64,000 bases of DNA. It comes from Candidatus Cloacimonadales bacterium. Lineage in GTDB: Bacteria; Cloacimonadota; Cloacimonadia; Cloacimonadales; JAIOQZ01. Below are positions 39,200 through 64,000 of the stretch, in pieces. The stretch spans positions 3,200,001 through 3,264,000 of the forward strand of contig OY771587.1 in NCBI GenBank assembly GCA_963674825.1, read 5' to 3'. Within the stretch, counting starts at the first letter, position 1. Each line of letters starts with the position of its first letter. The translations under genes were made by a program, and so were the position numbers. The notes under the pieces are model-generated. The model saw only the letters and a list, made by a program, of their open reading frames with translations, made no database searches and was not told the DNA's origin.

Positions 39200-40315
39200 A
39201 TGAAAAGCTGTATTACGATCTTGATATTTTCGTTGTTGCTGTCAATTGTCGGCATTGTTTTAGCAGACGAGATGCCCGAAACGACGACAAGCGTGGAGAT
39301 CTCCGATTCAACAGTTGCGATTCTTACCGATTCGGTACAGGTTGTCCTGCCACAATCCGTGCGCATTCTCGGCGTTGGCGATATTATGCCCGGCAGTGAT
39401 TTCCCGGACAGGAAGAAGTACCCCGCCAAGAACGGCGCGAACGTGATCCACTCCGATCTTGTGAAGATTATTCAGTGCGCTGATGTTGCCTTCTGTAATC
39501 TTGAAGGTGCTGTTGGTGATGACATCAAGACAAAGAAGGGCAAGACGTACGCTTTTCGGATTCCCACAAGTTTGGCCGAGCGTTTGGGCGAGTGGGGCTT
39601 CGATCTGGTATCGATAGCGAACAACCATGCCGGCGATTGCGAAGATGCTGGCAGGCACAGCACAATGAAATGCCTCGAATACATCGGGCTGATCTATTCC
39701 GGTTCACTCTTCACACCGGCTGGAGTCACTCTGGAAAAAGATGGCATTACCTACGGATTCATAGCTGTAGCACCGAACAAGGGTTGCAATAATTTCCACA
39801 ATACGAAGCTGATCGAGAATGAGATTCGTGGGCTGGATGAAAAGTGTGACATCGTCATTGTATCAATCCACGGTGGTGCTGAAGGCGAAGACGCCGAACA
39901 CCTGACGAAGAAAGTGGAGTATTACATGGGGGAGAACCGTGGCAATCTCTTCGAACTGACCCACCGGTTTGTCGATGCCGGGGCCGATATTGTATTCGGC
40001 CACGGGCCACATGTTACTCGGGCCATCGAGTGCTACAACGGTCGCTTGATTGCCTACAGCCTGGGTAACTTCTGCACGTACGGACGATTCAATCTCGACG
40101 GTGTCAGAGGGCTTGCGCCTATGATTGAAGTGGAGACTGATCTGAATGGCAAGCTGATTTCCGGCAAAATTTATTCTGTGAAACAGCCCTGGCCGGGAGG
40201 TCCTGTACCGGACGACAATCAGCGCGTTCTGGAGCGTATCATCGATTTGACGGAGCATGACCTTGGCGGGGGAGGAGTTGAGTTCCGCGGTAATCTATTC
40301 TTCCCGATCGAGTGA
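39200..40315 (+). CDS. CapA / PGA_cap family metallophosphatase-fold protein
   Basis: GDIM, NLEG, ANNH..D, HGG.E, GHGPHV and YSLGNF motifs; signal peptide. Confidence 0.9.
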   Translation: MKSCITILIFSLLLSIVGIVLADEMPETTTSVEISDSTVAILTDSVQVVLPQSVRILGVGDIMPGSDFPDRKKYPAKNGANVIHSDLVKIIQCADVAFCNLEGAVGDDIKTKKGKTYAFRIPTSLAERLGEWGFDLVSIANNHAGDCEDAGRHSTMKCLEYIGLIYSGSLFTPAGVTLEKDGITYGFIAVAPNKGCNNFHNTKLIENEIRGLDEKCDIVIVSIHGGAEGEDAEHLTKKVEYYMGENRGNLFELTHRFVDAGADIVFGHGPHVTRAIECYNGRLIAYSLGNFCTYGRFNLDGVRGLAPMIEVETDLNGKLISGKIYSVKQPWPGGPVPDDNQRVLERIIDLTEHDLGGGGVEFRGNLFFPIE

Positions 40316-40316
40316 T

Positions 40317-41948
40317 TTAGTGATTAGTCTCCGGGAGGTGGAACGAAAAAGTACTGCCCTTGTCGAGCCTGCTCTCGACCCATATCTCGCCACTGTGTTT
40401 CTGGATGATCTGGCGTGTCATTGCCAGGCCAATCCCGATACCACCCGTTTTACGCTCATTCATTTTACCCAGCTGCTGAAATTGCTCGAATAAGTTGCTG
40501 ATCTCATGCTCTTCGATGCCGCTTCCAGTGTCTTCCACTGAAACCGTTACACCATCGCCTGCTCGTTCTGTCCTGATACGTATGAAACCCGAATCGGTGA
40601 ATTTTACTGCGTTTTCGAACAGGTTCATGACACCCTTTACTATCCAGTCCGCATTCAAATCGACAGGAATAACTTCGGATGAAAGATCCATATACAGCGT
40701 GATTTCCTTGCCGGCGAGAAGCTGCTCCATATCGGGACGAAGATTCTTGATGATCTGATTGATATTGTAGCGCTGCATCTCCAGATTACCGGAAATGAGG
40801 TCAAGACTGCGGAAATCGAGAATGCGGGTAACGATTGCATTGAGCCGCTTGGCGTTCTCACGGATATGGGTTCCGATCTCGATCTGCTCGTCGTTCATCT
40901 CGCCGAGGTCCTGATCGATCAACAATGACATTCCATCACTGATCACTGTGAGTGGCGTGCGAAGCTCATGGCTTATGGCAGCGATGAAGAACTCTTTCAT
41001 GTCCAGGAGTTCCTTAACGTGGATATCTGACTGAATGCTTTCGGAAAGGTTCATATAAAGGTCGCCGATCAAGCGAAGCAGCGGAAAGTTGTGCTGCCAT
41101 TCACGCTGGATGGGCTGCCTGAAGAAAAACGCGATATAGCCTTTCAGTTCTCCTTTGGAAAACATCGGGACAGCTAAGAGTCCGCTACACTGGCAGCGCT
41201 CCATGATCTGAACAACCATCGAATTTTCGATTCTGGCAATATGGGGGAAGAATAAAACCGACTCCTGAGCGAATCGCTCTTGAATCCAGGAGCGGAATGC
41301 CGCTTTAAGCGTAGGAGGAACTCGCTTCTCGATCGATTCTATTTGCAGAAGATTCATCAGGTCGTTATCGAAAAAGACAAGGTGCATCTCATCTGCACCA
41401 ATCTTCTGCGTGATCTTGTCGAACGAGTTCTCCACACCAGGCTTGAGATTCTCTACTTCGATACCCAGTGATTGTGTTGATATTGTTGTCAGGAGCTGTC
41501 CGAATTCCTGAAGATAGCGGATCTCGGCAGTCCTTTCCTGCACGGCAGTCTCAAGTCGTTTGGTGTAGTCTTTGAGATGGAGCGAGTTTTCCACGGCCAT
41601 TTTCAGCTCATAGATACCGAAGGGTTTATGCAGGAAATGGGCGACACCACGTTTATAACAGATTTCCAGAGTCTGATTGTCACCAGCCTGAGTCATTACG
41701 ACAACAGCCCATGGATCTTTATTGGAGAGGTCAATTCGTTCGAGGAATTCCAATCCACCCATGCGCGGCATATTCATGTCGAGAATGATCACGTCAGGAC
41801 GCTTCTTTTCGAACTCGACCAACCCTTCTTCACCGTTTGCAGCTTCGGCAAAGGTGTATTCTGGCGATTCGAGTACTTCGCGTATAATCTCGCGTATCGA
41901 TTCATCATCTTCGACGATTAGTATGTGCCTTATCTGTTCTTCACTCAT
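40317..41948 (-). CDS. Hybrid histidine kinase (REC-GAF-like-HisKA-HATPase)
   Basis: ILIVEDD/LDMNMP receiver; SHELRTP H-box; NAVKFT, DTGSG and GIGIGL boxes. Confidence 0.9.
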   Translation of the reverse strand: MSEEQIRHILIVEDDESIREIIREVLESPEYTFAEAANGEEGLVEFEKKRPDVIILDMNMPRMGGLEFLERIDLSNKDPWAVVVMTQAGDNQTLEICYKRGVAHFLHKPFGIYELKMAVENSLHLKDYTKRLETAVQERTAEIRYLQEFGQLLTTISTQSLGIEVENLKPGVENSFDKITQKIGADEMHLVFFDNDLMNLLQIESIEKRVPPTLKAAFRSWIQERFAQESVLFFPHIARIENSMVVQIMERCQCSGLLAVPMFSKGELKGYIAFFFRQPIQREWQHNFPLLRLIGDLYMNLSESIQSDIHVKELLDMKEFFIAAISHELRTPLTVISDGMSLLIDQDLGEMNDEQIEIGTHIRENAKRLNAIVTRILDFRSLDLISGNLEMQRYNINQIIKNLRPDMEQLLAGKEITLYMDLSSEVIPVDLNADWIVKGVMNLFENAVKFTDSGFIRIRTERAGDGVTVSVEDTGSGIEEHEISNLFEQFQQLGKMNERKTGGIGIGLAMTRQIIQKHSGEIWVESRLDKGSTFSFHLPETNH

Positions 41949-41972
41949 GGCTTTACCCGTAGTTATATGAAG

Positions 41973-43913
41973 CTACGATTGCTTTTTTAGCTCGATCAGC
42001 AGTTCATCTACCTTTTTCTTTTTCTCGAAGTTCTGTTGTCTGGAAAGTACTTCAAGTTCGTTTATTGCTTGATTTTTCCGATCCAGACAGATATACGTCA
42101 TGGCGAGTCGAAGGCGTGCGTCAGAGACCTTGTGGGACTGTGGGTATTCATCGATAACAGTCTTGAAATGGCTTGCGCTTCGTTCGTAATCTTGCCGCGC
42201 GTATTGGATTTCGCCAAGCCAGTAATGGACGTTCGGTGCAAGATAATGATGAGGATTCATAGCCAGAAGGTCATTAAACGTCCGCTCGGCTTTTAGAGCA
42301 TCGCCCGACCAAAGCTGATCAAGTGCTTGGTCGTACATACTCTTGAAGTTCATGGATGTCTTGGGTGCTTCCGGTTTCTTGGTTTCTTCAGCCTTTTTTT
42401 CTTCGGCTTTCTTTTCCTCGGGTTTCTTCTCCTCAGCCTTCGGTTTCTCAGCCGGCTTTGGCTTGGTTACCTCAGGTTTCGGTTCAGGCTTCTTTTCTTC
42501 TACTTTCGGCTTCGGAGCAGGAGCTGGCTTCTTCACTGTTTCGGCAGGCTTGGGTTGCTGCTGAATGGGCTGCGTCAACGGGATTGGTTTTTGCCGATTC
42601 GGCTGAAGCTTCTCCATAAGCACTGTCTCGAGATGCAGGCTGTAACCTTCACGATCGGCAGCTTTGAGCTTCGGATAATGGATGCTGACGCTGCAATTAA
42701 GAATATGCTTGTCCAGCTCGCGGAGCAAATTCAAGAACGTACTGCGAATTTCTCTTAAGTACGGGCGGTTTGCATTGTTGAGTAACACCAGATTTTCATC
42801 CGGTGGTGCAATAAGCTCGCCTTTCTTGTTGATATATCCCGTTTGAACCAGTTCGTCGAAGATAAGCTTAGGATCGGTTTTGCGTTGCCGTGCTACCGAA
42901 AGGAAATCTTCCGGTTTCAGCCGGGTCTTGGGTATTACAAAAACCTTAGAGACGATGAATTTCTCGCGAAGACTGAACTCTTTACGGAATTCTTCGAGAA
43001 GATAATCACTTTCGCGGTAGATCTGGCGGATGATACCGCGATAGGAATAACCGTCATTAAACATCACCTTTACGTAGGTTCCCGGACGAACATAGCGACG
43101 ATAGCGGAAATCGAAATAGGTGATAACATAGCGATCGTTGGTGTTCGCGAGTGTCAGGATCGTTTCTGTCTGATCCACGACTTCGTACGGGGTCTTTTTT
43201 ACGGTCGCAACAATGCCGTCGTGCGTTGCGATAAGATGACGGTCGCCATGGCCACCATAGCCGCTTCCGCCGGTGTTACGGACGACAGTTTTTTCGCTGC
43301 CGGCTTCTTTGAGGTTTCGGATCACCAGATATTCGTACTGGATGCTTTTGTTCACCTTTTGCAGCTTGAACTCGATATCTTCTATCTTTTCCTTGTATTT
43401 CCGGAGTTCGGAAGTGGTCAGGAGTTCCTTGCGATAGAGTTCCCGAGCATTTTCCAGCTCTTTTTGCGCTGTTGCAAGCTCTTCCGTGTAGCGATCCTTT
43501 TCCAGTCGCAGAAGTTGCAGGTCTTTCTGTGCGCCGATGATCTTGCTCTGGTCTTTCTGGGTTGTAGTGGAAGTCTGCACAGGTGTGTAAGTTCTTCCTC
43601 CCCAGGCACCTTCGTAATCCACTACCACGAGCGTATCACCGCGATGGACTTCCTGGTTTCGCACGACGTTGATCTCGTCGATCCGCGCTGGGTCAACGGT
43701 TGCAATTCTCGTTTCCGTCGCCGTAAATACCCCCATACCTTTCACAAAGAAGATACGGTTGATCAGGTAATAGAGTGCGAAAACCACCAGTGCAATGATG
43801 ATGGCGAAATAGATCAGCTTGCCGAGCGTTATCCGCTTTCTACGTGGCGGCTCAAGCTTCGACATGGCCTCCGAATGATCGATCAGATCATTACCGCTTT
43901 TTCTCAAGTTCAT
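41973..43913 (-). CDS. HlyD-like membrane fusion protein with Pro/Lys/Glu linker and C-terminal CpoB/YbgF-like TPR domain
   Basis: Single N-terminal TM; lipoyl halves (V..NQEV.RGDTL and A..DGIV) around a coiled coil; PKPE repeats; A..YWLGE..Y...Y..S...F..V...YP.S.K..DA.L.L. Confidence 0.72.
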   Translation of the reverse strand: MNLRKSGNDLIDHSEAMSKLEPPRRKRITLGKLIYFAIIIALVVFALYYLINRIFFVKGMGVFTATETRIATVDPARIDEINVVRNQEVHRGDTLVVVDYEGAWGGRTYTPVQTSTTTQKDQSKIIGAQKDLQLLRLEKDRYTEELATAQKELENARELYRKELLTTSELRKYKEKIEDIEFKLQKVNKSIQYEYLVIRNLKEAGSEKTVVRNTGGSGYGGHGDRHLIATHDGIVATVKKTPYEVVDQTETILTLANTNDRYVITYFDFRYRRYVRPGTYVKVMFNDGYSYRGIIRQIYRESDYLLEEFRKEFSLREKFIVSKVFVIPKTRLKPEDFLSVARQRKTDPKLIFDELVQTGYINKKGELIAPPDENLVLLNNANRPYLREIRSTFLNLLRELDKHILNCSVSIHYPKLKAADREGYSLHLETVLMEKLQPNRQKPIPLTQPIQQQPKPAETVKKPAPAPKPKVEEKKPEPKPEVTKPKPAEKPKAEEKKPEEKKAEEKKAEETKKPEAPKTSMNFKSMYDQALDQLWSGDALKAERTFNDLLAMNPHHYLAPNVHYWLGEIQYARQDYERSASHFKTVIDEYPQSHKVSDARLRLAMTYICLDRKNQAINELEVLSRQQNFEKKKKVDELLIELKKQS

Positions 43914-45960
43914 CTTTTTCTACCCTTATATGTAACAGGTTGTTATAGTCATGATACGCCATTCCACGGAAGTTAACAAACACCGATAGTTTGTTGCGCA
44001 GCATTTCTACGCTGTCCCGTAGCTGGTTACGGTTATCAAAATTATCGATATTGACGCCTACAACGACCGGTATGCCGGCGTCTTCGGTATCGTTCATCTC
44101 GTTGTACACTTTTATAAGTAGATCTTCCAGTGATCGCTGGTACGCCATTAGCGTTACTTCATTGACATACGGCAGGATCGTCATAAGATAAGCGGGATCC
44201 GCTTCATCGAAGAATGGAGCGATATCAACTTCGATCCGAATCTGGTCACCGACAAGGCGTTTCACGTACTGAAGCGTTTCTTTGAGAAGTTCCAACCCCG
44301 TGACTTTGTCTGTGTCCCACACCTCGAGGCCCTGCGGTTCGAGGTCAAGATGAAGACCATCGATGCGCTCATCTTCCGGAGCGACGGCATTGTAGTGCAT
44401 TATCTGCTCAATTCTTCTGCCAAGCTCCGGTCGTTTACTTCTGACCAGCCATGAATTTTCCGAGAGCAGTGCGCTGATCTGGATGTTGTGCCGGTGCAGT
44501 TCGGAGATAAGGTTGATCAGATCAGGCGAGCCGGCTTCAAGCTTCTGAATGATCGCCTGCGAGAACGAAAAATAGACGCGATCGATCTTGTACGTGTTGC
44601 AGGTTGTCAGGATTTCACGTGCCTTGCCCTGTGTGAGAAGTTCTTCGGTATTCCAGATCCAGACGCCATTGGAAATATCTTGAGCCTGTTCCGGAGTAGC
44701 CAATTTGAAAACCGATAATGGCAGGAAAGTTGCAAAAGCGAGGTTCATGATCGAGCGTTCCAGCTGAAGCTGTGAGATCTCGTATTCCATCTGCGCCTGC
44801 TGGAAATCAAGCTGTGCCTTATGCATATCCCATGATTGCCAGTCGTCTGTTTGAACGGAAGCGATTTTTAGGCGTTCCTGAGCGATATCACGTTCGATGC
44901 GGATGTATTCAATCTCATTCTGCTTCGATTCGCAGTCGGCATAGAGCCGGATGAGATCATCAATGTTTTCTTCTAACCGCTCCTGATTTTCGATCTCAGT
45001 GTAGCGTTGAGAGACCTTGCGAAGCTTTTTATTGTGTCCCGGGAAAGTCAATATTGAAAGCGGGAAGCTGATTCGCGCGCCTGCTTCGAGGTTGTCGCGA
45101 TCCTGCCCCGAACCATATTCGTACCAGTTGTAGCCACCGTAAATGGTCAGGCTGATATCGCGTAGCGAATTGTAGCGATAGCCGTCAATAGCTTCCTGGT
45201 AGTGAAGCTGACGCCTACCACGCGCATCGTAATAACTGTATAGGCTATCCATGAGAGCGTTGAAATCGGGAAGGTCATGGAAATTGCCGTAATCCTCGAA
45301 GGGAATGGTCTTCGGATCGAGATTATATTTGGCTGCGAAGAGCTCCCGTGTTGCCTGGAACTTGGTCGAATATTCGTCGTATCGGGTATGAACGCGCTCT
45401 ACATCGCGGCTCGACTTCACGAAGTCATCCCGCAGGATTTCACCGAAATAGTATCGACGCTTCACCTTGTCGAACTCGGTGCTGGTCGATGTATCCAATG
45501 CGGAATAGGCTTCTGCCTGGCGCTTGAGGATGAGGAGCTTGAGGTATTCATCGAGAAGCCCTGCTTCGCGTCTGCGGATTAGTTCGTCGATACGGTCGGC
45601 AAGCCTGGCTCGTTCATTCTTTTTCTTTTTAACCTCTGCCGGCGTTGTCACAAAAGTGGTCGTAAGATCCTGTTGCAGTTGCAGCGATGCACGGCTTTCG
45701 GTGCGGTCGTCGCCGATCTCCTCTTCCATATACTCGAGGAAATATCTGCGATAGGACATACTGACGTTCGGACTGTACTGATGTCGGGTGGCGTCGATCT
45801 CATAATCGATCCGCTCCATTTCGGCATTCAGTTTCTGGATCTGATAATCGTTCTCAATCACCTTTTGCTTCAGATCTTCCAGAAACGCGTTCTGACCGAA
45901 TAACCAGGCACATGAAGTTATGAGAATCAATATCGAAACGATACGTTTGGTTATTACCAT
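43891..45960 (-). CDS. TolC-like outer-membrane efflux domain fused to a GH18-like TIM-barrel glycoside hydrolase domain
   Basis: Signal peptide; two helix/beta repeats (PNVSMSY, LEAGARISFPL); C-terminal GVWIWN, DGLHLDLEP, LMAY and GMAYHDY motifs. Confidence 0.62.
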   Translation of the reverse strand: MVITKRIVSILILITSCAWLFGQNAFLEDLKQKVIENDYQIQKLNAEMERIDYEIDATRHQYSPNVSMSYRRYFLEYMEEEIGDDRTESRASLQLQQDLTTTFVTTPAEVKKKKNERARLADRIDELIRRREAGLLDEYLKLLILKRQAEAYSALDTSTSTEFDKVKRRYYFGEILRDDFVKSSRDVERVHTRYDEYSTKFQATRELFAAKYNLDPKTIPFEDYGNFHDLPDFNALMDSLYSYYDARGRRQLHYQEAIDGYRYNSLRDISLTIYGGYNWYEYGSGQDRDNLEAGARISFPLSILTFPGHNKKLRKVSQRYTEIENQERLEENIDDLIRLYADCESKQNEIEYIRIERDIAQERLKIASVQTDDWQSWDMHKAQLDFQQAQMEYEISQLQLERSIMNLAFATFLPLSVFKLATPEQAQDISNGVWIWNTEELLTQGKAREILTTCNTYKIDRVYFSFSQAIIQKLEAGSPDLINLISELHRHNIQISALLSENSWLVRSKRPELGRRIEQIMHYNAVAPEDERIDGLHLDLEPQGLEVWDTDKVTGLELLKETLQYVKRLVGDQIRIEVDIAPFFDEADPAYLMTILPYVNEVTLMAYQRSLEDLLIKVYNEMNDTEDAGIPVVVGVNIDNFDNRNQLRDSVEMLRNKLSVFVNFRGMAYHDYNNLLHIRVEKDELEKKR

Positions 45961-47273
45961 CTTTCCGCCCTTTCTCTGACTCGTTGCGGTACGAAAGGAA
46001 GTTTGTAAGACACCCTGAAAAGCAGCTCGCTAAGGTATGCCGAAGCCCTGATAAGGCGAATGAAATACCCCTTATAGAAGCTGAAAAGCAGAATATACAT
46101 AAATAGGTGGATGTCCTGGTTGCGTTTACCGTTCAAAGACCACGCGATAAGCATCTCCAGAAACACAACGGCGCTGGAGACCACGTGGAAGATAATTAGT
46201 ATTGTCAGGAATGTGTATAGCTTGAAGCTGAGGAAGAGGAACAGGAAGATCACGAAGGTCATGGTAAGAACCAGTTGGAAGAAAACGATGTCCAGCCACC
46301 CGATTAGATTCGTGATGGAGAAATTACTCCACTCAAGGTTCGTCACGTTACGATGCTTTCTCAGCTTGATCTTGATCATACTTGTGTTCCAGCGGAACCG
46401 TTGCTTGATCAGTGCGTATAGCGATTCCGGGACTTTTGTATAACAAATGGCGTCGGCTGCAAAATGGACGCGCCATTTCTTCTTGCGGACTTTTGTCGTG
46501 ATATCCGAGTCTTCACCCGGACCCACCGAATAACCGTGAACCGATTGCAGGATGGAACGCCTGAACGCTCCGAACGCGCCGGACACGATGTAGAGAATGT
46601 TCACGCGGCTGCGGAAACGTCGGCCAGTTGCGATACTGAGCAGATATTCCATACCCTGAAGCGCGGTCACCACGTTCGTATTCGCGTTCAGCACTCGAAG
46701 ATTTCCGCCCACAGCACCCACTTCGGGATCGTAGAAATGGTAAAGAGTGTTCTCGAAGGCACGACGATGGAACAGTGTATCGGAATCGATACCGATGACA
46801 TATTCGCCGCGTGCGTACTGGAGCGCGTGATTTAGCGCACTGGATTTTCCACCGCGAACACTGTTGCGGATCAGCGTGATCTCACCTCGTCTTGCCAGCG
46901 GGAGCGCTGCCTCATAGGTTCCGTCCGTCGAGCAGTCGTCCGAGATGATGATCTGCAAGTTGTTGTACGTCTGTTCCTGCAATGAACGAATCGTTTTGAG
47001 GATGGTCTCCTTTTCATTCATGGAGGGAACGATCACTGAAACGAGTGGCCTTTCGCGGAAGAGCCTTTCCTTGGCGCGATCCCTGAAGAGATTTTCTTCC
47101 GATTTCTGCCGCCTTGGGTGCAGCAGGAATGTCAGAAAACGCGTGAAGAGATAACGCGGAAGATCGAACAGAAGGAAAAACGGCATGAAAATGAAGACCG
47201 TTTGAAGCCGCCAGTGCTGACGGGCAAAGTCTTCCAGAAAGAAGTATGCCGAGTATAGATCCTGTTCGAACAT
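45954..47273 (-). CDS. Processive GT2 polysaccharide synthase (PgaC/IcaA/HasA/NodC-like)
   Basis: DDCSTD, GKSSALN, DSD, VSGAFGAFR, GED and QRFRW motifs; N- and C-terminal TMs; start placed at MFEQ after GAGG. Confidence 0.88.
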   Translation of the reverse strand: MFEQDLYSAYFFLEDFARQHWRLQTVFIFMPFFLLFDLPRYLFTRFLTFLLHPRRQKSEENLFRDRAKERLFRERPLVSVIVPSMNEKETILKTIRSLQEQTYNNLQIIISDDCSTDGTYEAALPLARRGEITLIRNSVRGGKSSALNHALQYARGEYVIGIDSDTLFHRRAFENTLYHFYDPEVGAVGGNLRVLNANTNVVTALQGMEYLLSIATGRRFRSRVNILYIVSGAFGAFRRSILQSVHGYSVGPGEDSDITTKVRKKKWRVHFAADAICYTKVPESLYALIKQRFRWNTSMIKIKLRKHRNVTNLEWSNFSITNLIGWLDIVFFQLVLTMTFVIFLFLFLSFKLYTFLTILIIFHVVSSAVVFLEMLIAWSLNGKRNQDIHLFMYILLFSFYKGYFIRLIRASAYLSELLFRVSYKLPFVPQRVRERAERW

Positions 47274-47292
47274 TTCGTTTAGCCTCGTTTCT

Positions 47293-48825
47293 TTAGAATT
47301 CGATGACTTCGTTCTGACGGACAAGCTTTTCAAGTAGCTCGTCGCCGGTTGTTCCGTCTTCGGGATAGGTTACAAACTTGATATCGATGGTGAGCGCAGC
47401 CTTGATGCGCTGCTGGGCCTTCTCCATGATGCCATCGACGACTTTCTTCGCGCGCTTACTGTCAGCTTCCGGGAGGATACTGACGAAGGAGTTCTTGTCG
47501 TAGCGCGCTGGAATATCGACCTTCCAGAGGCTCTCCTTGAGGATTGCCGTGAGGTCTCGGAGGATATCGTGCGCTAATTCTTCGCCACCTTGTTCGATGA
47601 AGTCGTCGAGTCCGACCACTTCGAGAAGCACCAGCGAAAGCGCTCTATCGAACTGTTCAGCACGCTGGAGTTCCTCGCGGAACTTGGTCCGGAAGTAGTT
47701 AAGGTTGAATAGATTGATGTCCTGATCCATCAGCTCCTGCTCGAAGTTAACGGAGAAGAATCGTCCCTGCTGAACCGCTTCGTTTGCCTTGTCGGTCAGC
47801 ACGAAGCTGAAGATGTTCGAGCGGATGGCGTCACCGGCGTAGAATTCGTTTTTACAGTTACGGCACTGGCAAAGGACATCCGGTTCTGTGAACTTGTGCT
47901 GATTTTTGTTGCAGACGAACATCTTGCCGGGTTTGTCGTAGTCAACGCCGATCGCCTCGAGCTCGTCCAGGCATTTCGGGCAGACCAGCGAGAGACCATG
48001 CATGAATTCGCGCTCGGTTCCGATGTAGCCACACTTGTAATGATGGATCGTCGGCATGAGCGAGATATCGGGGCTGCGGTCGGTCGGGCAGACTTCGCGC
48101 AGGTTGAGATTGTGATGGGTGCAGTTGGGGCAGAGGAGGATGCGATCGAAGAAGGTGCGTTTGACCGTACCTTTTTCTTCGAGATAATAAAGCTCCTGCA
48201 GCTCCATGCCTGGCTGTAGATCGAAAAACGATGTGACGTCCTTGTACTCGTAGCCAGATTTGACCAGGATGTTGTAAACTGGGTCGATTTGCGCGATGTT
48301 GCGGTCGATGAGTTCCTTGAGGAATTCCAACCGTTTTTTATCCCGACTGTCAATCGCGAGCGCGGATCCGCCTTCTTCGGGAAGCGCGACAGCGATTTGT
48401 GCGCGACGAAGAACGCTCTGGATACGTGCTGCAAGCTCTTCAGCGTCGTAGGGTTTGGTCATGTAGTCGTCAATACCGAGTTTGAGCGCTTTGATCTTGG
48501 TCTCCTGCGAGACTTTGGCGGTCAGCATAATGATCGGTATGTGACTAACCTTCGGATTGGCACGAATCGCCTGCGCGACTTCGTATCCGTCCATACCCGG
48601 CATCAGAAGATCGAGAATAATCAGATCAGGCGGTTCGTTCTCGATGAACTCAAGCGCTTTTTCGCCTGAATTTACAGAAAAACTGTTATAACCGAGTTTG
48701 CGAAGACGGGTTGTAATGATTTTATTCAGAACAATTTCATCATCGACAACGAGAATTTTTTTCTTGTTATCGTCTTCTGAGTTCATTGCCGTCTGCGGCT
48801 CGTACGTCTCGTTTTTTTCTTCCAT
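47293..48825 (-). CDS. Response regulator: REC + Cys-rich TackOD1-like domain + degenerate GGDEF
   Basis: ILVVDD/LDLLMP/KP receiver; CPNC, H..CG, CPKC, IG.DY and CRNC; D..INLFN..YF...ARYDKNSF..ILP. Confidence 0.8.
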   Translation of the reverse strand: MEEKNETYEPQTAMNSEDDNKKKILVVDDEIVLNKIITTRLRKLGYNSFSVNSGEKALEFIENEPPDLIILDLLMPGMDGYEVAQAIRANPKVSHIPIIMLTAKVSQETKIKALKLGIDDYMTKPYDAEELAARIQSVLRRAQIAVALPEEGGSALAIDSRDKKRLEFLKELIDRNIAQIDPVYNILVKSGYEYKDVTSFFDLQPGMELQELYYLEEKGTVKRTFFDRILLCPNCTHHNLNLREVCPTDRSPDISLMPTIHHYKCGYIGTEREFMHGLSLVCPKCLDELEAIGVDYDKPGKMFVCNKNQHKFTEPDVLCQCRNCKNEFYAGDAIRSNIFSFVLTDKANEAVQQGRFFSVNFEQELMDQDINLFNLNYFRTKFREELQRAEQFDRALSLVLLEVVGLDDFIEQGGEELAHDILRDLTAILKESLWKVDIPARYDKNSFVSILPEADSKRAKKVVDGIMEKAQQRIKAALTIDIKFVTYPEDGTTGDELLEKLVRQNEVIEF

Positions 48826-48833
48826 GTTGCACT

Positions 48834-51560
48834 CTACTTAAGGTATTTGTTTGTTAATAATTCGCGGATATCGACAAAGCGTTCTTCGATTGTATCGATC
48901 CATTTGAGTATTTCTGGGTCGAAATCCGTTTCACTACTATGTTCGATCCGCTCGCTGACCATTCCGATGCCAACAATGCCCAGTGACAGGCTGTTTGATT
49001 TCAGGGAATGCGCGAAACGGTTCAAATCCGCCAGGTTTCGATCCTTATATGCATTTCTCATGCCACTAATTAGAACCTCGACCTGATCGAGATAGGTTCC
49101 GATAACATCGACCATCTCTTCCTCGAGCGGAAGGAGTTCTTTTTCCAGACGTTCAAAGTCAATCAGTTCGTCTCTGTTTTGCGACATTGGCTTTTCATCT
49201 TTTATTGTTTCAAATTTCGTATGCGTTAGCACTGTAATAAGATCTTCGATGCTGAATGGTTTGCCCATATAATTATCGACGCCGGCCCGATCGAGCCTGT
49301 CCTTAATATCGATATAATCGTAAGATGTCGATACAACGATGCGTGGCTGATGCTCTACAGGAAGGGTTGTCTTGATCTCTTCAGCGATCTCCACGCCGTC
49401 GCGTCCAGGCAAGTTCATATCGATGATCAGAAGATCGTATTTATGTCGGCGTAAGACCTGAAGCGCTTCTTCGCCGGTTGACGTGATATCTGCGTGGTAT
49501 CCCAGCTTCCCCAGATAATTGCTGATGATTTTCTGTTCGAAAATATTGTCATCGCAAACGAGGATTCTGGTGGGATATTGCTCGGCAAGGCGTTTATTGT
49601 CGATATGGTTGCCATTCGTGAATTTATCTTTGATTTCTTCGAGATGGAATGCGCTTGCCAGTGCGTGATACAGCTCTCGTTCTTTGAGCGGCTTGACGAT
49701 CGTAAACGATTCCTCAGAAGACTTGTCGTTGCGAATCGCATGCATCTGATTTCGAGTACCGAGGATCAAGACGGGTAACGTCTCGCGCTTGTACTCAAGC
49801 CGGATTCGATGCAACAAACCGAGGTTGCGGCTTCCAAAGAGCGGGACCGAAATGATGACTGCGTCACTGGAATTGAGCAGGTCGCGGATTTCATTTTGAT
49901 TCATGGTATAATCAATGCGCTGGTAATCCATCCCCCAATATTCTGTATATAGGGGAATAATTTTCCGCATCGTGATATCCGAGCCGATACCGAGAAGCCG
50001 TTTTTTATGAAGAATTTGCTTGAGCTGCTTCGTCGGATCGGGTTCTTTAGCGATCTGCTTTTCTGTGGTTACCGTGAAATGAAAGATAGAACCTTTGCCC
50101 ACTTCAGATTCCACCCAGATCCTTCCACCGAGGAGCTCCGAGAGCTGCCGACAGATGGTCAGCCCCAGGCCAGTTCCACCATGGCGTTTGAAGATGCTCG
50201 AATCAGCCTGGCTGAATGCCATGAAAATCTTTTCGAGGTTTTCTTGCTCAATACCGCTTCCTGTATCCTGTACCTGGAAATGCACTTCGATATTGCCGTC
50301 AGGTAGCACCGTTGAATCGACATACACATAAACATAGCCGATAGTGGTAAACTTGATCGCGTTACTGAGCAGGTTGAGCAGAATCTGGCGGATGCGTTCC
50401 ATGTCGCTATTGATGGTGCGCGGTGTAGCGGGGTTGATATAATATGCGAGCTCGAGGCGTTTCTCATCGGCGTTCTGATCGACGACTTTGAAAGCTTCTT
50501 CCACGCAGGTGTGGATGGACATGGGTTGGTGCTCGATTTCGAGCTTGCCGGCTTCGATTTTGGAGAAGTCCAGCAGGTCGTTAATGATAGTCAGAAGCGC
50601 GTTGCCACTGATTTGAAGGATATTGAGGTAGTCTTCCTGAACAGGATCAAGCACGGTGTCTTTCAGTAGTGTCAGGATACCCAGCATGGAATTGATGGGC
50701 GTTCGGATTTCGTGCGTGATGTGCGAGAGGAATAGCGTGCGGCTTTCGTTTGCGCGTCGGGCATTCTCGATCGCTATACTCAAGCGCTGTTGCACCTCTT
50801 TCTGTTGCGAGAGATCGACCAGCACGGCGAGGAATCCGCGTTTATTCATGAAGTCGACCACCGATTCGACCAGATGAACATCCCACTCGATGCGATTGCG
50901 GTTGGTTATACTCAAATCGTGGTGATTTCGTGTATTGTCCTGAAGAAGCTCCGCTTCGATGGCATCGAGCCTTGCTGCAGTTGATGTGGGGAACACGTCA
51001 GTATTCTTGTATCCAATGACCCGTTCGCGAGGCAGGCCGCACATTTCGATGAATTCTCGATTGCATCCGCGGAAAATCCCGTCCTCGTCCTTAAAAAATA
51101 CAGGATTCGGTACTTCCTGGATAAGCGATTCGATTAACTTGGTGCGGCTGGCGATAACTTGCAGGCTCGAGTCCCCGTCCATGATAAGTGGAGCTGAGCG
51201 GCTAATGAAGTCACTGACAATATCACCTAATAATTGATCATTCCAGGATGGATCGATCATATTCATGTTGGGCAGGCTGGCATGATGATCAGTGAAGATC
51301 GTTGGGTTGTCTGCAATTCCAATGCAAGCGATGTGCGAATGTGTCCTGCGGAAATCGTGGATCATCGCGATTGGCGTATGAGAATCGACAAAATAGACAA
51401 AGTATTTGATATCAAGGTATGTTCGACTGTCGCGAAGCGTATTCCAGCTCGCGAAAGGCGCGTTACTAAAATGATTACTATTACGCAAAGAGTGCATGTG
51501 AGATTCCGGGAATCCCACAAAAATCACGTTGTCCACGATAGATTTTTGCCTGATGTTCAT
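48834..51560 (-). CDS. Unorthodox hybrid sensor kinase (PAS-HisKA-HATPase-pseudoREC-REC-Hpt), cytoplasmic
   Basis: PNPVFFKD..G PAS; THEIRTP; NAIKFT; GGTGLGL; IDMNLP; AHSLKS Hpt; no TM segment seen. Confidence 0.9.
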   Translation of the reverse strand: MNIRQKSIVDNVIFVGFPESHMHSLRNSNHFSNAPFASWNTLRDSRTYLDIKYFVYFVDSHTPIAMIHDFRRTHSHIACIGIADNPTIFTDHHASLPNMNMIDPSWNDQLLGDIVSDFISRSAPLIMDGDSSLQVIASRTKLIESLIQEVPNPVFFKDEDGIFRGCNREFIEMCGLPRERVIGYKNTDVFPTSTAARLDAIEAELLQDNTRNHHDLSITNRNRIEWDVHLVESVVDFMNKRGFLAVLVDLSQQKEVQQRLSIAIENARRANESRTLFLSHITHEIRTPINSMLGILTLLKDTVLDPVQEDYLNILQISGNALLTIINDLLDFSKIEAGKLEIEHQPMSIHTCVEEAFKVVDQNADEKRLELAYYINPATPRTINSDMERIRQILLNLLSNAIKFTTIGYVYVYVDSTVLPDGNIEVHFQVQDTGSGIEQENLEKIFMAFSQADSSIFKRHGGTGLGLTICRQLSELLGGRIWVESEVGKGSIFHFTVTTEKQIAKEPDPTKQLKQILHKKRLLGIGSDITMRKIIPLYTEYWGMDYQRIDYTMNQNEIRDLLNSSDAVIISVPLFGSRNLGLLHRIRLEYKRETLPVLILGTRNQMHAIRNDKSSEESFTIVKPLKERELYHALASAFHLEEIKDKFTNGNHIDNKRLAEQYPTRILVCDDNIFEQKIISNYLGKLGYHADITSTGEEALQVLRRHKYDLLIIDMNLPGRDGVEIAEEIKTTLPVEHQPRIVVSTSYDYIDIKDRLDRAGVDNYMGKPFSIEDLITVLTHTKFETIKDEKPMSQNRDELIDFERLEKELLPLEEEMVDVIGTYLDQVEVLISGMRNAYKDRNLADLNRFAHSLKSNSLSLGIVGIGMVSERIEHSSETDFDPEILKWIDTIEERFVDIRELLTNKYLK

Positions 51561-59675: not shown

Positions 59676-61373
59676 ATGTGTGGAATCGTCGGAATACTGG
59701 ACAATAGAAATCACCCGAAGCAGGCCGAACTGGATCGTTTCACCGATTCACTGGCACACCGTGGGCCGGATGGTCGCGGAACCTGGCGGGATGGATGCAT
59801 CGCATTGGGACACCGTAGGTTGGCGATACTCGACCTGACCGATACCGGCAAGTGCCCGATGCCCTTCGGAGATAACAACCGCTACTGGATCACCTACAAT
59901 GGCGAGGTTTACAACTTCATCGAATTGCGCCGCGAGCTGGAGTCACACGGCCATCGATTTCGCTCCGAAACCGATACGGAAGTGATCGCCGCAGCCTATG
60001 CCCAATGGGGAAAAGACTGCCTCCTGCGCTTCAACGGCATGTGGGCATTCGCTATCTGGGACAGTGTCGATAAAACCCTTTTTCTTGCGCGCGACAGATT
60101 CGGAATCAAGCCATTCTACTACGCAGTGAGCGGCAGTCGGTTTGCTTTCGCATCCGAGATGAAGGCCTTTCGCGAACTCGCCGAATTCCAGCCGAAGCTC
60201 GATTCCGAAGGTCTGACGGCCTATCTCGCCGACCCCAAAGCAGCGGAAGGCAAGACGGACAGAACGCCGCTCGAAGGTGTTCGCAAGCTCCCCGCTGGTC
60301 ACTGTATGATGCTTGATCGCGATGGAAAGATGCAGCTCACGCGCTGGTGGAGCACCAAAGACCATTTTCCTGAGATTCCGCAAGGCTACCGGCAGCAGGT
60401 CGAACAGCTTCGCGAGCTTTTCCTCGATTCGGTCCGTCTCCGTATGCGCAGCGATGTTTCCATCGGAAGCTGCCTCAGCGGCGGTATCGATTCCAGCGGC
60501 GTGGTGGGTGCGCTGGCGCTTTTGCACAAGCGGGACGCACAGCTTGAACGCTGTCCGCAGGACTGGCAGAAGGCCTTTATCGCGACATTCCCCGATAGCG
60601 CCATCGACGAGCGAACTTACGCCGAAGAGGTGGTCGCCATGACCGACGCGAAGCCCTATTACTGGGTTTTCGATGGTGAACGGGCGGTCCGCAACACGGT
60701 CGATGTAATCTGGTCGCACGAGAGCGTTTATCAGGGGAACATGGTACCCATCTGGGCCACGTACCGCGAGCTCCGGCGCGATGGAACCGTGGTGACGCTG
60801 GACGGTCACGGGGCCGACGAGATGCTCGGCGGTTATATCTGGTATTTCGAGGAGACCTACAATACCCTCAACAGCAAGCTATACGACGATTTCCACCAAG
60901 CGTTGCCAACCCTCCTGCGCAATTTCGATCGCCTCGCCATGGCGCACGGCGTCGAGATTCGTACGCCGTATCTGGACTGGCGTCTGGTCAGCTACATCCT
61001 CGCACTTCCGCCGGAAACCAAGATTGGTAAGGGATTCACCAAGCGCGTCCTGCGCGATGCCCTTGAGGGGATTATCCCGGATCGCATCCGTGAACGCAGG
61101 TTCAAGATGGGTTTCAGTTCACCCATGGTAGACTGGTTTAACGGCGGCATGGAGAAGCTGATCCTGGAGACGATCGAGCACCCACTCTGGAAAAACAGCC
61201 CGTACTGGGACGTAAAGAAAATCAAGCCGGAAATCAAGCTCAAAACCGAACGACACGCCTGGCAAAGCTCCGAAAAGAGCAAGATCAGCAAATATTGGCT
61301 CTATATCAATGCGGTTCTCTGGCATCGATTGTTCATCGATGGCGAGGCACCGGAAAGCCTGAGGACGACATGA
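59676..61373 (+). CDS. asnB: Asparagine synthase (glutamine-hydrolysing) family amidotransferase, probably glycan-modifying
   Basis: MCGI, HRGPD, NGEVYN, RDRFGIKP, LSGGIDSS and G.GADE motifs; coupled to a GT gene. Confidence 0.9.
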   Translation: MCGIVGILDNRNHPKQAELDRFTDSLAHRGPDGRGTWRDGCIALGHRRLAILDLTDTGKCPMPFGDNNRYWITYNGEVYNFIELRRELESHGHRFRSETDTEVIAAAYAQWGKDCLLRFNGMWAFAIWDSVDKTLFLARDRFGIKPFYYAVSGSRFAFASEMKAFRELAEFQPKLDSEGLTAYLADPKAAEGKTDRTPLEGVRKLPAGHCMMLDRDGKMQLTRWWSTKDHFPEIPQGYRQQVEQLRELFLDSVRLRMRSDVSIGSCLSGGIDSSGVVGALALLHKRDAQLERCPQDWQKAFIATFPDSAIDERTYAEEVVAMTDAKPYYWVFDGERAVRNTVDVIWSHESVYQGNMVPIWATYRELRRDGTVVTLDGHGADEMLGGYIWYFEETYNTLNSKLYDDFHQALPTLLRNFDRLAMAHGVEIRTPYLDWRLVSYILALPPETKIGKGFTKRVLRDALEGIIPDRIRERRFKMGFSSPMVDWFNGGMEKLILETIEHPLWKNSPYWDVKKIKPEIKLKTERHAWQSSEKSKISKYWLYINAVLWHRLFIDGEAPESLRTT

Positions 61374-64000
61374 CCCATTTCGTTTATGCTGGAAAACTTC
61401 GTGGCGCGGACGATCCCCGCGTTGAATACCTGAAAAAGCTCACCCGCGCATCGATTACCTGGCGCGGTGAATATTCGCATGCCTATTTCATCGATGTGGA
61501 GGAACGCGATCAGCTTCCGGTGGGCGTTTCCGCCTTCCAGTTCGGCGATTACGCTTCCATGGGATGGAAGGATAAGCTGGCGAGTGCTTGCGTTACGGTT
61601 GTCTTTTCCAATGAATTGGAACCGTTTACAGTCGCGATGCGTAACGGATTGAAAATCCTGATGCCTGCGAATCACCCTGCACTTCCACTGCTTAACACCG
61701 AGTCGCAAGTCGTGCCATTCAGCGATGTGAACGATTTCTATCGCAAAGTCCAGACTCTTCTGGACGAAGGCGGAGAGCGCATGATGCCGGGTCGTCGCTG
61801 GAAACAGATTGAAGGCGATCGGCTCGTCTGGGCGCGGTTTGCCGCGGCGTTTGGACAGCAGGCAGCAAGTACGGATGATAGAAGCCGTGACGCTGAAGCG
61901 TACCGCAAGGCAATCCGTGAAAAGGGCTGGCAGGAAAAGGAGAATATCTATCTCGACGAATTCGAGTGGTTTACCAGGAAGCCGTGCGAGAGTCCGCGGA
62001 TCAGCATCGTGATCATCTCCTACGAATACAATCCCGATGTGCTGCTCAACCTGCAAGAGCTCATGAAGCAGCCTGGGCATCAATTGATATTTGTGAACAA
62101 CGGCGGAACGGTCGAGGAGTTCGAGCCGGTTGCCGGGATCCCGCATATTTATTTGAAACTGAAAGAGAATAAGGGTGCGTATCTGGCGCGTAACGCCGGG
62201 GCTGTATTCGCAACAGCGCCGATCATCCTGTTTCTGGATGACGACGCGCTGCCGGCTAAGAACCTGATCCAGACGCACATCGATAATTTCCAGCGCTACG
62301 ACATCCTTTCGTTGCGTGGCGTTTGCTTGCCGCGAACCAACAATCCGTTCAACGGGCTGCCGCGACACTACTATCTGGGGGATGAACCCTTCCCACGATT
62401 CGCTAACATCGAAGGCAACACTTCGTATCGCAGCGATATCTTTTTCCGGGCAGGCGGGTGGTCGGATGATATCCGCTTTGGCGGTGGAGGACTGGATCTT
62501 GCGCTCAGGATCCTGCAAGTCGATCCCGATTTACAGAAGCATATGTTTTCACCTGAGCCGGTCATCTATCACGACTACGTGAACAACACCGAGCATCTCG
62601 CCAAGAAATCGGAGAAGCAGCACAAATCGCGCAGCAGGCTTTTCCGAAAATATCCTGACCATCTGGAAAAGGTAAGCCAGTGGAACACGATGCGACATCG
62701 TACGAATTTGCTCCATGTACGCGAGGGTTTCACGGTCGAGAGCAACGTCATGACCGAGGCGAAGCGATCTCCACAGCTCTATCGCCTCTTGCAGGTGCGT
62801 TCATGGCAGTACAAGTTCGGGTACTACGATTACTATTGGTCGCACGTGGATGAGTTTAATCCACCCGATGAAGTATCAATATCGGTGGTGTTTGTCGCGG
62901 AGCGTCTTGACGACCAACTGCGCGAGAGCATACGCCGGATCAAGCGGCAGGCCGATCACGTAAGCGTCGTGGTCGTCAACAATGCCGGTGACGAGAAGGA
63001 TTTTACCGATCCGGGCTGCGATTATCTGGTGCATCTGAAGAAACGGGCGAACAAGAACACCGCGCGCAACCTGGGCTCGCTCATGGTCAAGTCACCCGTG
63101 ATTCTGTTTCTTGGAAATCATTGTATCCCAACGGATAACCTCATCAAGCGGCATCTGGACACCTTCCTGAAATTCCGTGTGGTAACGCTGGAAGGTGAGA
63201 TATTGATGGAAGGTGACGAACTGCCACAGGACAAGAGAACCTACAGCGTCTTCCCGGTGGAAGAGGACCACATTTCGTTTCTCAATGCGGGCTTTGTGAT
63301 GATCAAGGGATTCGTCGACCATGTGAATGAAGATGGCATCCACGAGTTCAATCTGCGCATGATGAATATCGCTGCCGATCTGGCGCAAAATCGCCATGAT
63401 CCCGGTTGCGTAGTGTATTCGAAGAAGCGTCGCGGTATCAGGCAGGAGGAGGTTATGCAATCACCTCCGCTGCATCTTCAGGAGCGTCCATGGCAGATGA
63501 AAACATATCGCAATTGGCTTGCGCTGGACGATCAGCGCTATCGGATGATCCCGCATCAGGAAGCGATCGAGATGAACAACCTGCTGAACCAGTCGGGTCA
63601 GCTACTTGCACAGGGCAGGCTGAAAGAGGCGTTGCCTGGCTTCGAGAAGTGCGCCGTGATGAACCCGTTGAACTTCCAGTGTGCCAGCATGCTGAGCTAT
63701 ACCTATCTCAATCTGGGTGAGCTCGAGAAGGCGCGCCGGGCGATTCTACCCGCCGTAACCATGCTTCCGCTGAACGAAGATATGGTGGGGAATCATGTGG
63801 CAATTCTGCTGCAAATGGGTAAGATCGAAGAGGCTAAAAGCTTCTGCGAGGGATTCCTGGCCCAAAAAACACACGTGAAGATCCAGAAGATCCTTGTTCA
63901 GATCGAAGAGTATATGAAGCAGAACCGGATGTCGTCCGCAACGCCGGAAGAACGGCTGATCGAACGGACCAAAGCGGAAGAATTCACGTCTGCGCTACAG
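61370..64000 (+). CDS. Large multidomain glycosyltransferase (GT2 + degenerate GT2 + TPR), 3'-truncated by window edge
   Basis: ATG 61370 overlaps the asnB stop (ATGA); 877 open codons by manual translation; ISIVIISY/FVNNG/ARNAG/FLDDD, a second ISVVFV/VNNAG/ARNLG copy, then TPR-like helices. Confidence 0.88.
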   Translation, partial: MTHFVYAGKLRGADDPRVEYLKKLTRASITWRGEYSHAYFIDVEERDQLPVGVSAFQFGDYASMGWKDKLASACVTVVFSNELEPFTVAMRNGLKILMPANHPALPLLNTESQVVPFSDVNDFYRKVQTLLDEGGERMMPGRRWKQIEGDRLVWARFAAAFGQQAASTDDRSRDAEAYRKAIREKGWQEKENIYLDEFEWFTRKPCESPRISIVIISYEYNPDVLLNLQELMKQPGHQLIFVNNGGTVEEFEPVAGIPHIYLKLKENKGAYLARNAGAVFATAPIILFLDDDALPAKNLIQTHIDNFQRYDILSLRGVCLPRTNNPFNGLPRHYYLGDEPFPRFANIEGNTSYRSDIFFRAGGWSDDIRFGGGGLDLALRILQVDPDLQKHMFSPEPVIYHDYVNNTEHLAKKSEKQHKSRSRLFRKYPDHLEKVSQWNTMRHRTNLLHVREGFTVESNVMTEAKRSPQLYRLLQVRSWQYKFGYYDYYWSHVDEFNPPDEVSISVVFVAERLDDQLRESIRRIKRQADHVSVVVVNNAGDEKDFTDPGCDYLVHLKKRANKNTARNLGSLMVKSPVILFLGNHCIPTDNLIKRHLDTFLKFRVVTLEGEILMEGDELPQDKRTYSVFPVEEDHISFLNAGFVMIKGFVDHVNEDGIHEFNLRMMNIAADLAQNRHDPGCVVYSKKRRGIRQEEVMQSPPLHLQERPWQMKTYRNWLALDDQRYRMIPHQEAIEMNNLLNQSGQLLAQGRLKEALPGFEKCAVMNPLNFQCASMLSYTYLNLGELEKARRAILPAVTMLPLNEDMVGNHVAILLQMGKIEEAKSFCEGFLAQKTHVKIQKILVQIEEYMKQNRMSSATPEERLIERTKAEEFTSALQ

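Follow-up and report, generated by a model that had tools for sequence, protein, structure and literature searches.

We report a six-gene operon in an uncultured Cloacimonadota bacterium (Candidatus Cloacimonadales), located in a stretch of 64,000 nucleotides (nt) of contig OY771587.1 (positions 3,200,001 to 3,264,000; hereafter the window, whose numbering is used throughout). All six open reading frames (ORFs) lie on the minus strand and encode, in transcription order, a hybrid kinase (HK1), a regulator with a receiver (REC), a TackOD1 zinc-ribbon domain and a degenerate GGDEF domain, a family 2 glycosyltransferase (GT2), a TolC-type channel fused to a glycoside hydrolase (GH)-like barrel, an HlyD adaptor with a TPR domain and a second hybrid kinase (HK2). 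The junctions in the same order are gaps of 8 and 19 nt, overlaps of 7 and 23 nt, and a gap of 24 nt. A first-pass annotation of this DNA had listed six co-oriented, tightly packed genes with these domains, and the ORF map and Pfam searches confirmed their order, spacing and domains. The arrangement is not due to chance, since the six-gene order is identical in 3/3 congeneric Ca. Cloacimonadales genomes found (L001-L003), which also bears out the expectation that the genes co-occur in other genomes.

Genes and proteins of the operon

The HK1 gene (48834..51560; start ATG 51560, alternative TTG 51575, from which the HK1 residues are numbered) has the Pfam architecture PAS-HisKA-HATPase-REC-Hpt, and the parts recognised in the protein are PAS, HisKA (H288), HATPase, a pseudo-REC, REC (D719) and Hpt (H856). 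HK2 (40317..41948), assigned by Pfam and by its residues, consists of REC (D57), a middle domain without family, HisKA (H327) and HATPase. Membrane segments are found in neither kinase, which places both in the cytoplasm. The phosphorylation sites of HK1 (H288, D719, H856), HK2 (D57, H327) and the regulator (D72) are intact and kept in L001-L003. Both kinases are translationally coupled in 4/4 genomes of the genus and are full-length together with the operon in the 3/3 congeners; four other genomes of the family, i.e. three near-complete members without TackOD1 and the fragmentary G121, have kinase-core matches only to HK1 and HK2. In one congener a frameshift near residue 465 splits HK2 (L003:15319-16943), reflecting either an assembly error or decay.

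The regulator (47293..48825) matches the Pfam families REC (residues 24-136), TackOD1 (residues 160-342, E 5e-43; 47800..48348) and GGDEF (residues 367-499). Its receiver is intact (D28, D29, D72, T102 and K124), and its structure model (predicted local distance difference test, pLDDT, 84) shows genuine REC and GGDEF folds; the TackOD1 part, which was not folded alone, lies outside the listed fold matches of the full-length model. The GGDEF position reads DKNSF, the beta-1 region GLDDF and the DID motif EVV, and the regulator was rejected as an active cyclase on the basis of DKNSF and EVV. Alignment of REQDIVGRYGGEEF of the regulator with WKVDIPARYDKNSF, taken as reference from a canonical diguanylate cyclase that the genome also encodes, places W434-K-V-D437 (47515..47526) at the RxxD I-site and indicates that active site and I-site arginine are both missing from the regulator. 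A lack of cyclic di-GMP (c-di-GMP) does not account for this loss, since three canonical GG(D/E)EF cyclases are encoded in the host genome. The protein had been annotated as a c-di-GMP-linked activator; at this locus, where RxxD reads WKVD, a link to c-di-GMP is probably absent. The function of TackOD1 is called 'obscure' in a study on archaea (PMC5847659). One of the three TackOD1 Cys clusters is degenerate in this lineage (C246xxD, C305xxN).

The GT2 synthase (45954..47273; 439 aa) was assigned by Pfam, TIGRFAM score, motifs and phylogeny. It carries the motifs DDCSTD112, IDSD162, GEDSD253 and QRFRW291, in line with its earlier description as a processive GT2 with D, DxD, GED and QRFRW, and has a transmembrane (TM) bundle at its C-terminus (residues 318-380). 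It is nearer to PgaC (equivalog TIGR03937; 175 bits, E 3e-51, cut-off 422) than to NodC (97 bits); against the cellulose synthase model TIGR03030 it reaches 41 bits (cut-off 699), and PilZ is absent. A homologue that is 39% identical carries the depositor label MxdB.

The fourth gene (43891..45960) gives two Pfam OEP matches, and its product was modelled with a pLDDT of 92 from 79 sequences. Residues 1-417 (44710..45960) comprise a signal peptide and an outer-membrane channel of TolC fold, residues 23-417 matching TolC/OprM/CusC (Foldseek E 2e-13; VIA Z 20-22, root mean square deviation (rmsd) 6-7 Å over approximately 380 residues). The C-terminal part (43891..44691) is a GH18-like TIM barrel by fold matches (GH18 enzymes at Z 17-18.5) and profile matches, has no Pfam family and spans residues 424-681 in the model. 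Modelling thus upheld the predicted TolC fold of the N-terminal part and showed a GH18-like barrel where a fused glycoside hydrolase had been annotated. The barrel contains the motifs D534-G-L-H-L-D-L-E541-P and M605-A-Y, i.e. HxDxE at the position tested for the GH18 feature DxDxE, and an HxDxEP-type motif is kept in 33/35 neighbourhood GH domains. Weak matches to PF00704 were seen in 4/58 members, and the window GH domain has none. A HMMER search with the GH domain returned 605 relatives among 50% representatives, and a word search with the full-length fusion returned the three congeners only. Among 50 longer relatives, picked from the 150 matches listed, OEP occurs in 29, a carbohydrate-binding module (CBM9/11/30) in 5 and SPOR in 2. 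The best profile match is PDB 10yv (E 5e-34), followed by chitinases. This entry, a Cellulomonas fimi protein deposited as 'putative GH97', is homologous to the GH domain over the full length; its GH97 label looks doubtful, since the next profile matches are GH18.

The adaptor (41973..43913; Pfam and TIGRFAM score) is composed of HlyD_3, a TM helix (residues 26-58), a Pro/Lys/Glu linker and a C-terminal TPR domain (residues 522-627). The TPR domain is nearest to the YbgF/CpoB type (TIGR02795; 75 bits, below the cut-off of 90) and is present on 1/59 related adaptor ORFs, that of this genus only; the scaffold role known from Pel/Alg, which had been suggested for it, was rejected on these grounds. 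Approximately 75 aa appear to be inserted in the adaptor barrel domain (42700-42930; residues ~328-400), and typical adaptor relatives are approximately 340 aa long.

Distribution and relation to known systems

A metagenome scan confirmed at least 547 of 591 candidate stretches, of which the best 80, ranked by likeness to the window protein, were kept; in total 94 regulators were reduced to 75 representatives at 80% identity. All four cysteines of TackOD1 are kept in 68/75 representatives, and a GT2 gene directly follows the TackOD1 regulator in 61/61 non-redundant loci whose downstream flank is 1.5 kb or longer. For the 40 loci with long flanks we found an adaptor in 40, a TolC-like gene in 28, a GH domain in 27, a TolC-GH fusion in 24 and a kinase in 11. 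The fusion count comes from a TolC profile iterated on these fusions, and its independence leans on the occurrence of OEP in 29/50 GH-domain relatives. The absence of an ATP-binding cassette (ABC) transporter from the window locus, as first annotated, was confirmed, and the ABC motif pair is present in 0/40 long loci, where resistance-nodulation-division genes were not separately searched. The TackOD1/dead-GGDEF regulator, GT2 and HlyD adaptor hence form a widespread module. In locus L105, whose proteins belong to Shewanella frigidimarina clusters, the three genes are uninterrupted and follow the mxdABC order. Among plasmids, 13 records of the collection have a match to the TackOD1-GGDEF part, with a listed GT2 match adjacent in 12/13. 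A mobilizable 29 kb Aeromonas plasmid carries the same four-gene order including TolC-GH (L004:6425-12247), and regulators of Stutzerimonas and Raoultella share a 90% cluster with the plasmid regulator, which together indicate that the cassette is mobile. A Photobacterium replicon (W01) has two TackOD1 genes (268668-269195 and 511981-512499). An undecaprenyl-phosphate glucose phosphotransferase gene follows one related operon (L029:10174-11703) and galE another (L116:4809-8175), a possible hint at the sugar used.

The closest described relative is the Mxd system of Shewanella. There, mxdA encodes a degenerate-GGDEF c-di-GMP receptor, mxdB a GT2 and mxdC an efflux-like protein (PMC3691769, PMC13713693), mxdD is a hypothetical or periplasmic protein (PMC13713693, PMC11538702), and mutation of mxdA or of mxdB abolishes aggregation and biofilm (PMC3691769). 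Both c-di-GMP and CheY3 bind to MxdA, and biofilm needs phosphorylated CheY3 (PMC7666153, PMC11395469). Both operons combine a degenerate-GGDEF gene, a GT2 gene and an efflux or membrane fusion protein (MFP) gene, with TolC-GH inserted before the MFP gene here, and both have a REC-type input, which is CheY3 acting in trans on MxdA and a fused REC in cis in our operon. Moreover, the window GT2 and its S. frigidimarina homologue group together: all 23 TackOD1-linked enzymes, including these two, fall on one side of the GT2 tree (SH-aLRT 93), a tree made by a quick method from 28 sequences (22 of 62 neighbourhood GT2s, the window GT2 and five outgroups, namely PgaC, NodC and three others), with long outgroup branches flagged. 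In contrast to Mxd, the present operon has a TolC-GH18-like gene, two in-operon hybrid kinases, a fused intact REC and TPR on the adaptor, and it lacks the small periplasmic mxdD, HK2 starting 24 nt after the adaptor stop. The NVDEF of MxdA (PMC13713693) is not found at the GGDEF site (DKNSF), and the loss of RxxD (WKVD) predicts that c-di-GMP is not bound. We have not filed the operon as Mxd proper because of the missing NVDEF and mxdD; we infer that it is Mxd-like, its likeness to S. oneidensis Mxd being drawn from descriptions by way of S. frigidimarina L105. The Shewanella homologue L105:991-2382 has NFEEF at the DIDNFK motif position and RVTD at the I-site, and the published NVDEF may not be the equivalent of the GGDEF loop. 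The published mxd promoter primer gave 0 matches in the metagenome contigs, and the literature within our scope, which left aside subscription papers and bioRxiv supplements, contained no link of TackOD1 or of a TolC-hydrolase fusion to Mxd.

A tripartite logic of GT2, HlyD and TolC, without porin or pump, is shared with BgsA-BgsB-TolC, which makes a rhizobial mixed-linkage glucan (the BgsAB glucan requires tolC; PMC13438883), and with XcsA-XcsB-TolC, for which cyanobacterial glucan export has been proposed (PMC12430437, PMC8892547); both models are called unproven by their papers. These systems differ from ours in that TolC is encoded elsewhere, whereas here it belongs to the operon and carries a hydrolase-like barrel as a fusion, and in that the synthase itself is activated by c-di-GMP (PilZ in XcsA), whereas here the regulator is a separate protein. 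Our GT2 is a 439-aa PgaC-type enzyme and not of the cellulose-synthase type with its own c-di-GMP domain (BgsA itself was not compared). The similarity to PgaABCD extends to GT2 size and motifs; the window enzyme is on a separate tree branch, and PgaA, the PgaB deacetylase and PgaD are absent from the locus. Identity with Pga (175 versus 422 bits, no partners) and with cellulose synthase (41 versus 699 bits) was thus rejected. The system had been put forward as undescribed, which does not hold for its core: this fits the description of Mxd, and GT2-HlyD-TolC export has already been proposed (PMC3691769, PMC13713693, PMC13438883, PMC12430437, PMC8892547). The operon is probably a phosphorelay-rewired variant of a known, poorly understood Mxd-like system.

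As regards the genomic context, recent transfer of the operon was rejected, since its GC content (0.48-0.51) and GC content at third codon positions (0.55-0.65) are like those of most housekeeping genes checked. TackOD1 is nevertheless patchy in the phylum (over cut-off in 5/232 genomes), and in G119 and G120 the region upstream of tilS carries none of the six genes. A promoter and terminator scan remained at chance level (16 found versus 14.3 expected; 11 versus 13.4), and no operon promoter was assigned. A CapA/PGA_cap gene (39200-40315, plus strand), kept in L001-L003, converges on HK2, its end adjoining the HK2 stop. Further away, asnB is followed by a gene for a 2809-aa protein (61295-64000 and beyond; L118:2296-10725, plus strand) with two matches each to GT2, to GT4-type and to CDP-glycerol glycerophosphotransferase, which looks like a one-chain synthase of a capsule or teichoic-type polymer.

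Proposed mechanism and probable control by phosphorelay

We consider it rather probable that this Mxd-like operon makes a GT2 polymer that is exported via its own HlyD and TolC proteins, and that it is switched on by the in-operon kinases and not by c-di-GMP. HK1 would sense a cytoplasmic cue through PAS, and the phosphoryl group would pass from H288 via D719 and H856 to D72 of the regulator, while HK2 would either provide another input or drain phosphate. The phosphorylated regulator would dimerise, as PleD and WspR do, and then engage the cytoplasmic domain of GT2. GT2 would polymerise a beta-linked surface polysaccharide and translocate it across the inner membrane, the single TM helix of the adaptor being its putative partner; the adaptor and TolC would bridge the periplasm and carry the polymer out, and the GH18-like domain, on the periplasmic C-terminus of TolC, would trim or clear it. 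The DxE motif of this domain points weakly to an N-acetylhexosamine polymer. The first-pass annotation had suggested that GT2 may be the inner-membrane translocator and that an MFP/TolC conduit appears to take the place of a porin; our data support the synthase-dependent system and the conduit, while translocation by GT2 is part of the proposed scheme. They also favour its suggestion that control is post-translational, probably by phosphorelay, and the receiver fused to the regulator, together with the kinases of the operon, resembles the CheY3 input to Shewanella MxdA brought into cis.

The comparison of related loci is consistent with such a change of control. RxxD is kept in 0/8 regulators with an intact fused receiver versus 49/65 others (73 representatives with the GGDEF region covered), and in 2/11 loci with a kinase nearby versus 23/29 without (40 long loci). 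In this genus, in alphaproteobacteria and in a third clade, the site was lost where a receiver is fused to the regulator or hybrid kinases lie alongside.

Several observations weigh against the proposed reading. On a GT2 tree of 62 rows, made by a quick method, RxxD changed only about six times, and after correction for kinship (45 rows) there are 4 independent pairs, with 3.1 the same way and 0.1 opposite (median p 0.25), so that the trend between RxxD and two-component input is suggestive and not significant. Some relatives (L005, L006, L029 and L068) lack both RxxD and a nearby kinase, and two loci with kinases keep RxxD. The host genome has 74 REC ORFs and 44 kinase ORFs, and adjacency does not therefore prove which kinase feeds D72. 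A TolC-like gene is not found nearby in 12/40 long loci, which suggests that a dedicated channel is dispensable. The metagenome sample is biased, since it holds the best 80 of at least 547 stretches ranked by likeness. Finally, the top structural match of the GH domain is Cwp19 (Z 20.7, rmsd 3.3, 241 aligned), a peptidoglycan hydrolase.

This last match is the starting point for an alternative role of the barrel, which would cut peptidoglycan so that the conduit can pass through the wall, and would leave the polymer untouched; it is compatible with the rest of the model. SleL (Z 18.2) is likewise among the top folds, SPOR occurs in 2/50 long homologues, the adaptor here has a CpoB-like TPR, and the barrel would sit outside the sealed conduit. 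Against this role, GH18 chitinases are the sole profile matches with E below 0.1 beyond 10yv, glycan-binding CBM9/11/30 are found in 5/50 homologues, and the Xcs and Bcs systems are accompanied by endoglycanases (PMC12430437). We regard wall cleavage as unlikely, and trimming or clearing of the polymer remains our preferred function of the barrel.

It is more doubtful still that the same machine is mainly under c-di-GMP control through a site other than RxxD, with the kinases signalling elsewhere or only modulating. The three canonical cyclases of the genome and the non-significant kinship-corrected test would fit such control, and the c-di-GMP binding site of MxdA is not specified in the Mxd literature covered. 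However, the receiver is intact and conserved, both kinases are coupled in 4/4 genomes of the genus, and alphaproteobacterial relatives independently pair fused REC and Hpt/hybrid kinases with the absence of RxxD, all of which argue against this alternative. The weakest alternative, a short or lipid-linked (NodC-like) GT2 product or an adaptor and TolC serving a transporter encoded elsewhere, with no long polymer passing through TolC, is improbable: hydropathy gives GT2 few TM helices, as it does for NodC, a further 6 adaptor and 2 TolC-like matches exist in the genome, and an indirect role of TolC is left open in PMC13438883, but the adaptor is beside GT2 in 40/40 loci, none of which has an ABC gene, bit scores place GT2 closer to PgaC than to NodC, and aggregation and biofilm are lost in mxdA and mxdB mutants (PMC3691769).

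What is specific to this locus is the fused intact receiver, the lost RxxD and the in-operon kinases; the core is already a named system and the swap of control is suggestive only. More broadly, and with a little less than even confidence, we propose that TackOD1/dead-GGDEF proteins are a dedicated on-switch for widespread and largely unrecognised pump-less GT2-adaptor-TolC machines, which carry an unclassified hydrolase fused to TolC, and that this switch has repeatedly traded its c-di-GMP site for phosphorylation. The present locus would then be the complete case, since sensor, Hpt relay and fused receiver all lie in one operon. In the reviews consulted, synthase-dependent systems are switched by c-di-GMP, and direct phosphorelay gating, if true, would represent a different control logic. 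The locus also bears on whether TolC conducts polysaccharide, which is left open in PMC13438883 and PMC12430437, on the role of TackOD1 (PMC5847659) and on the kinase input to Mxd, given as unknown in PMC7666153. Self-contained, with TolC included among its six genes, it offers a clean construct, in which the control logic is testable by single point mutants, and if true a phosphorelay-gated switch would suggest how phosphorylated CheY3 acts on Shewanella MxdA.

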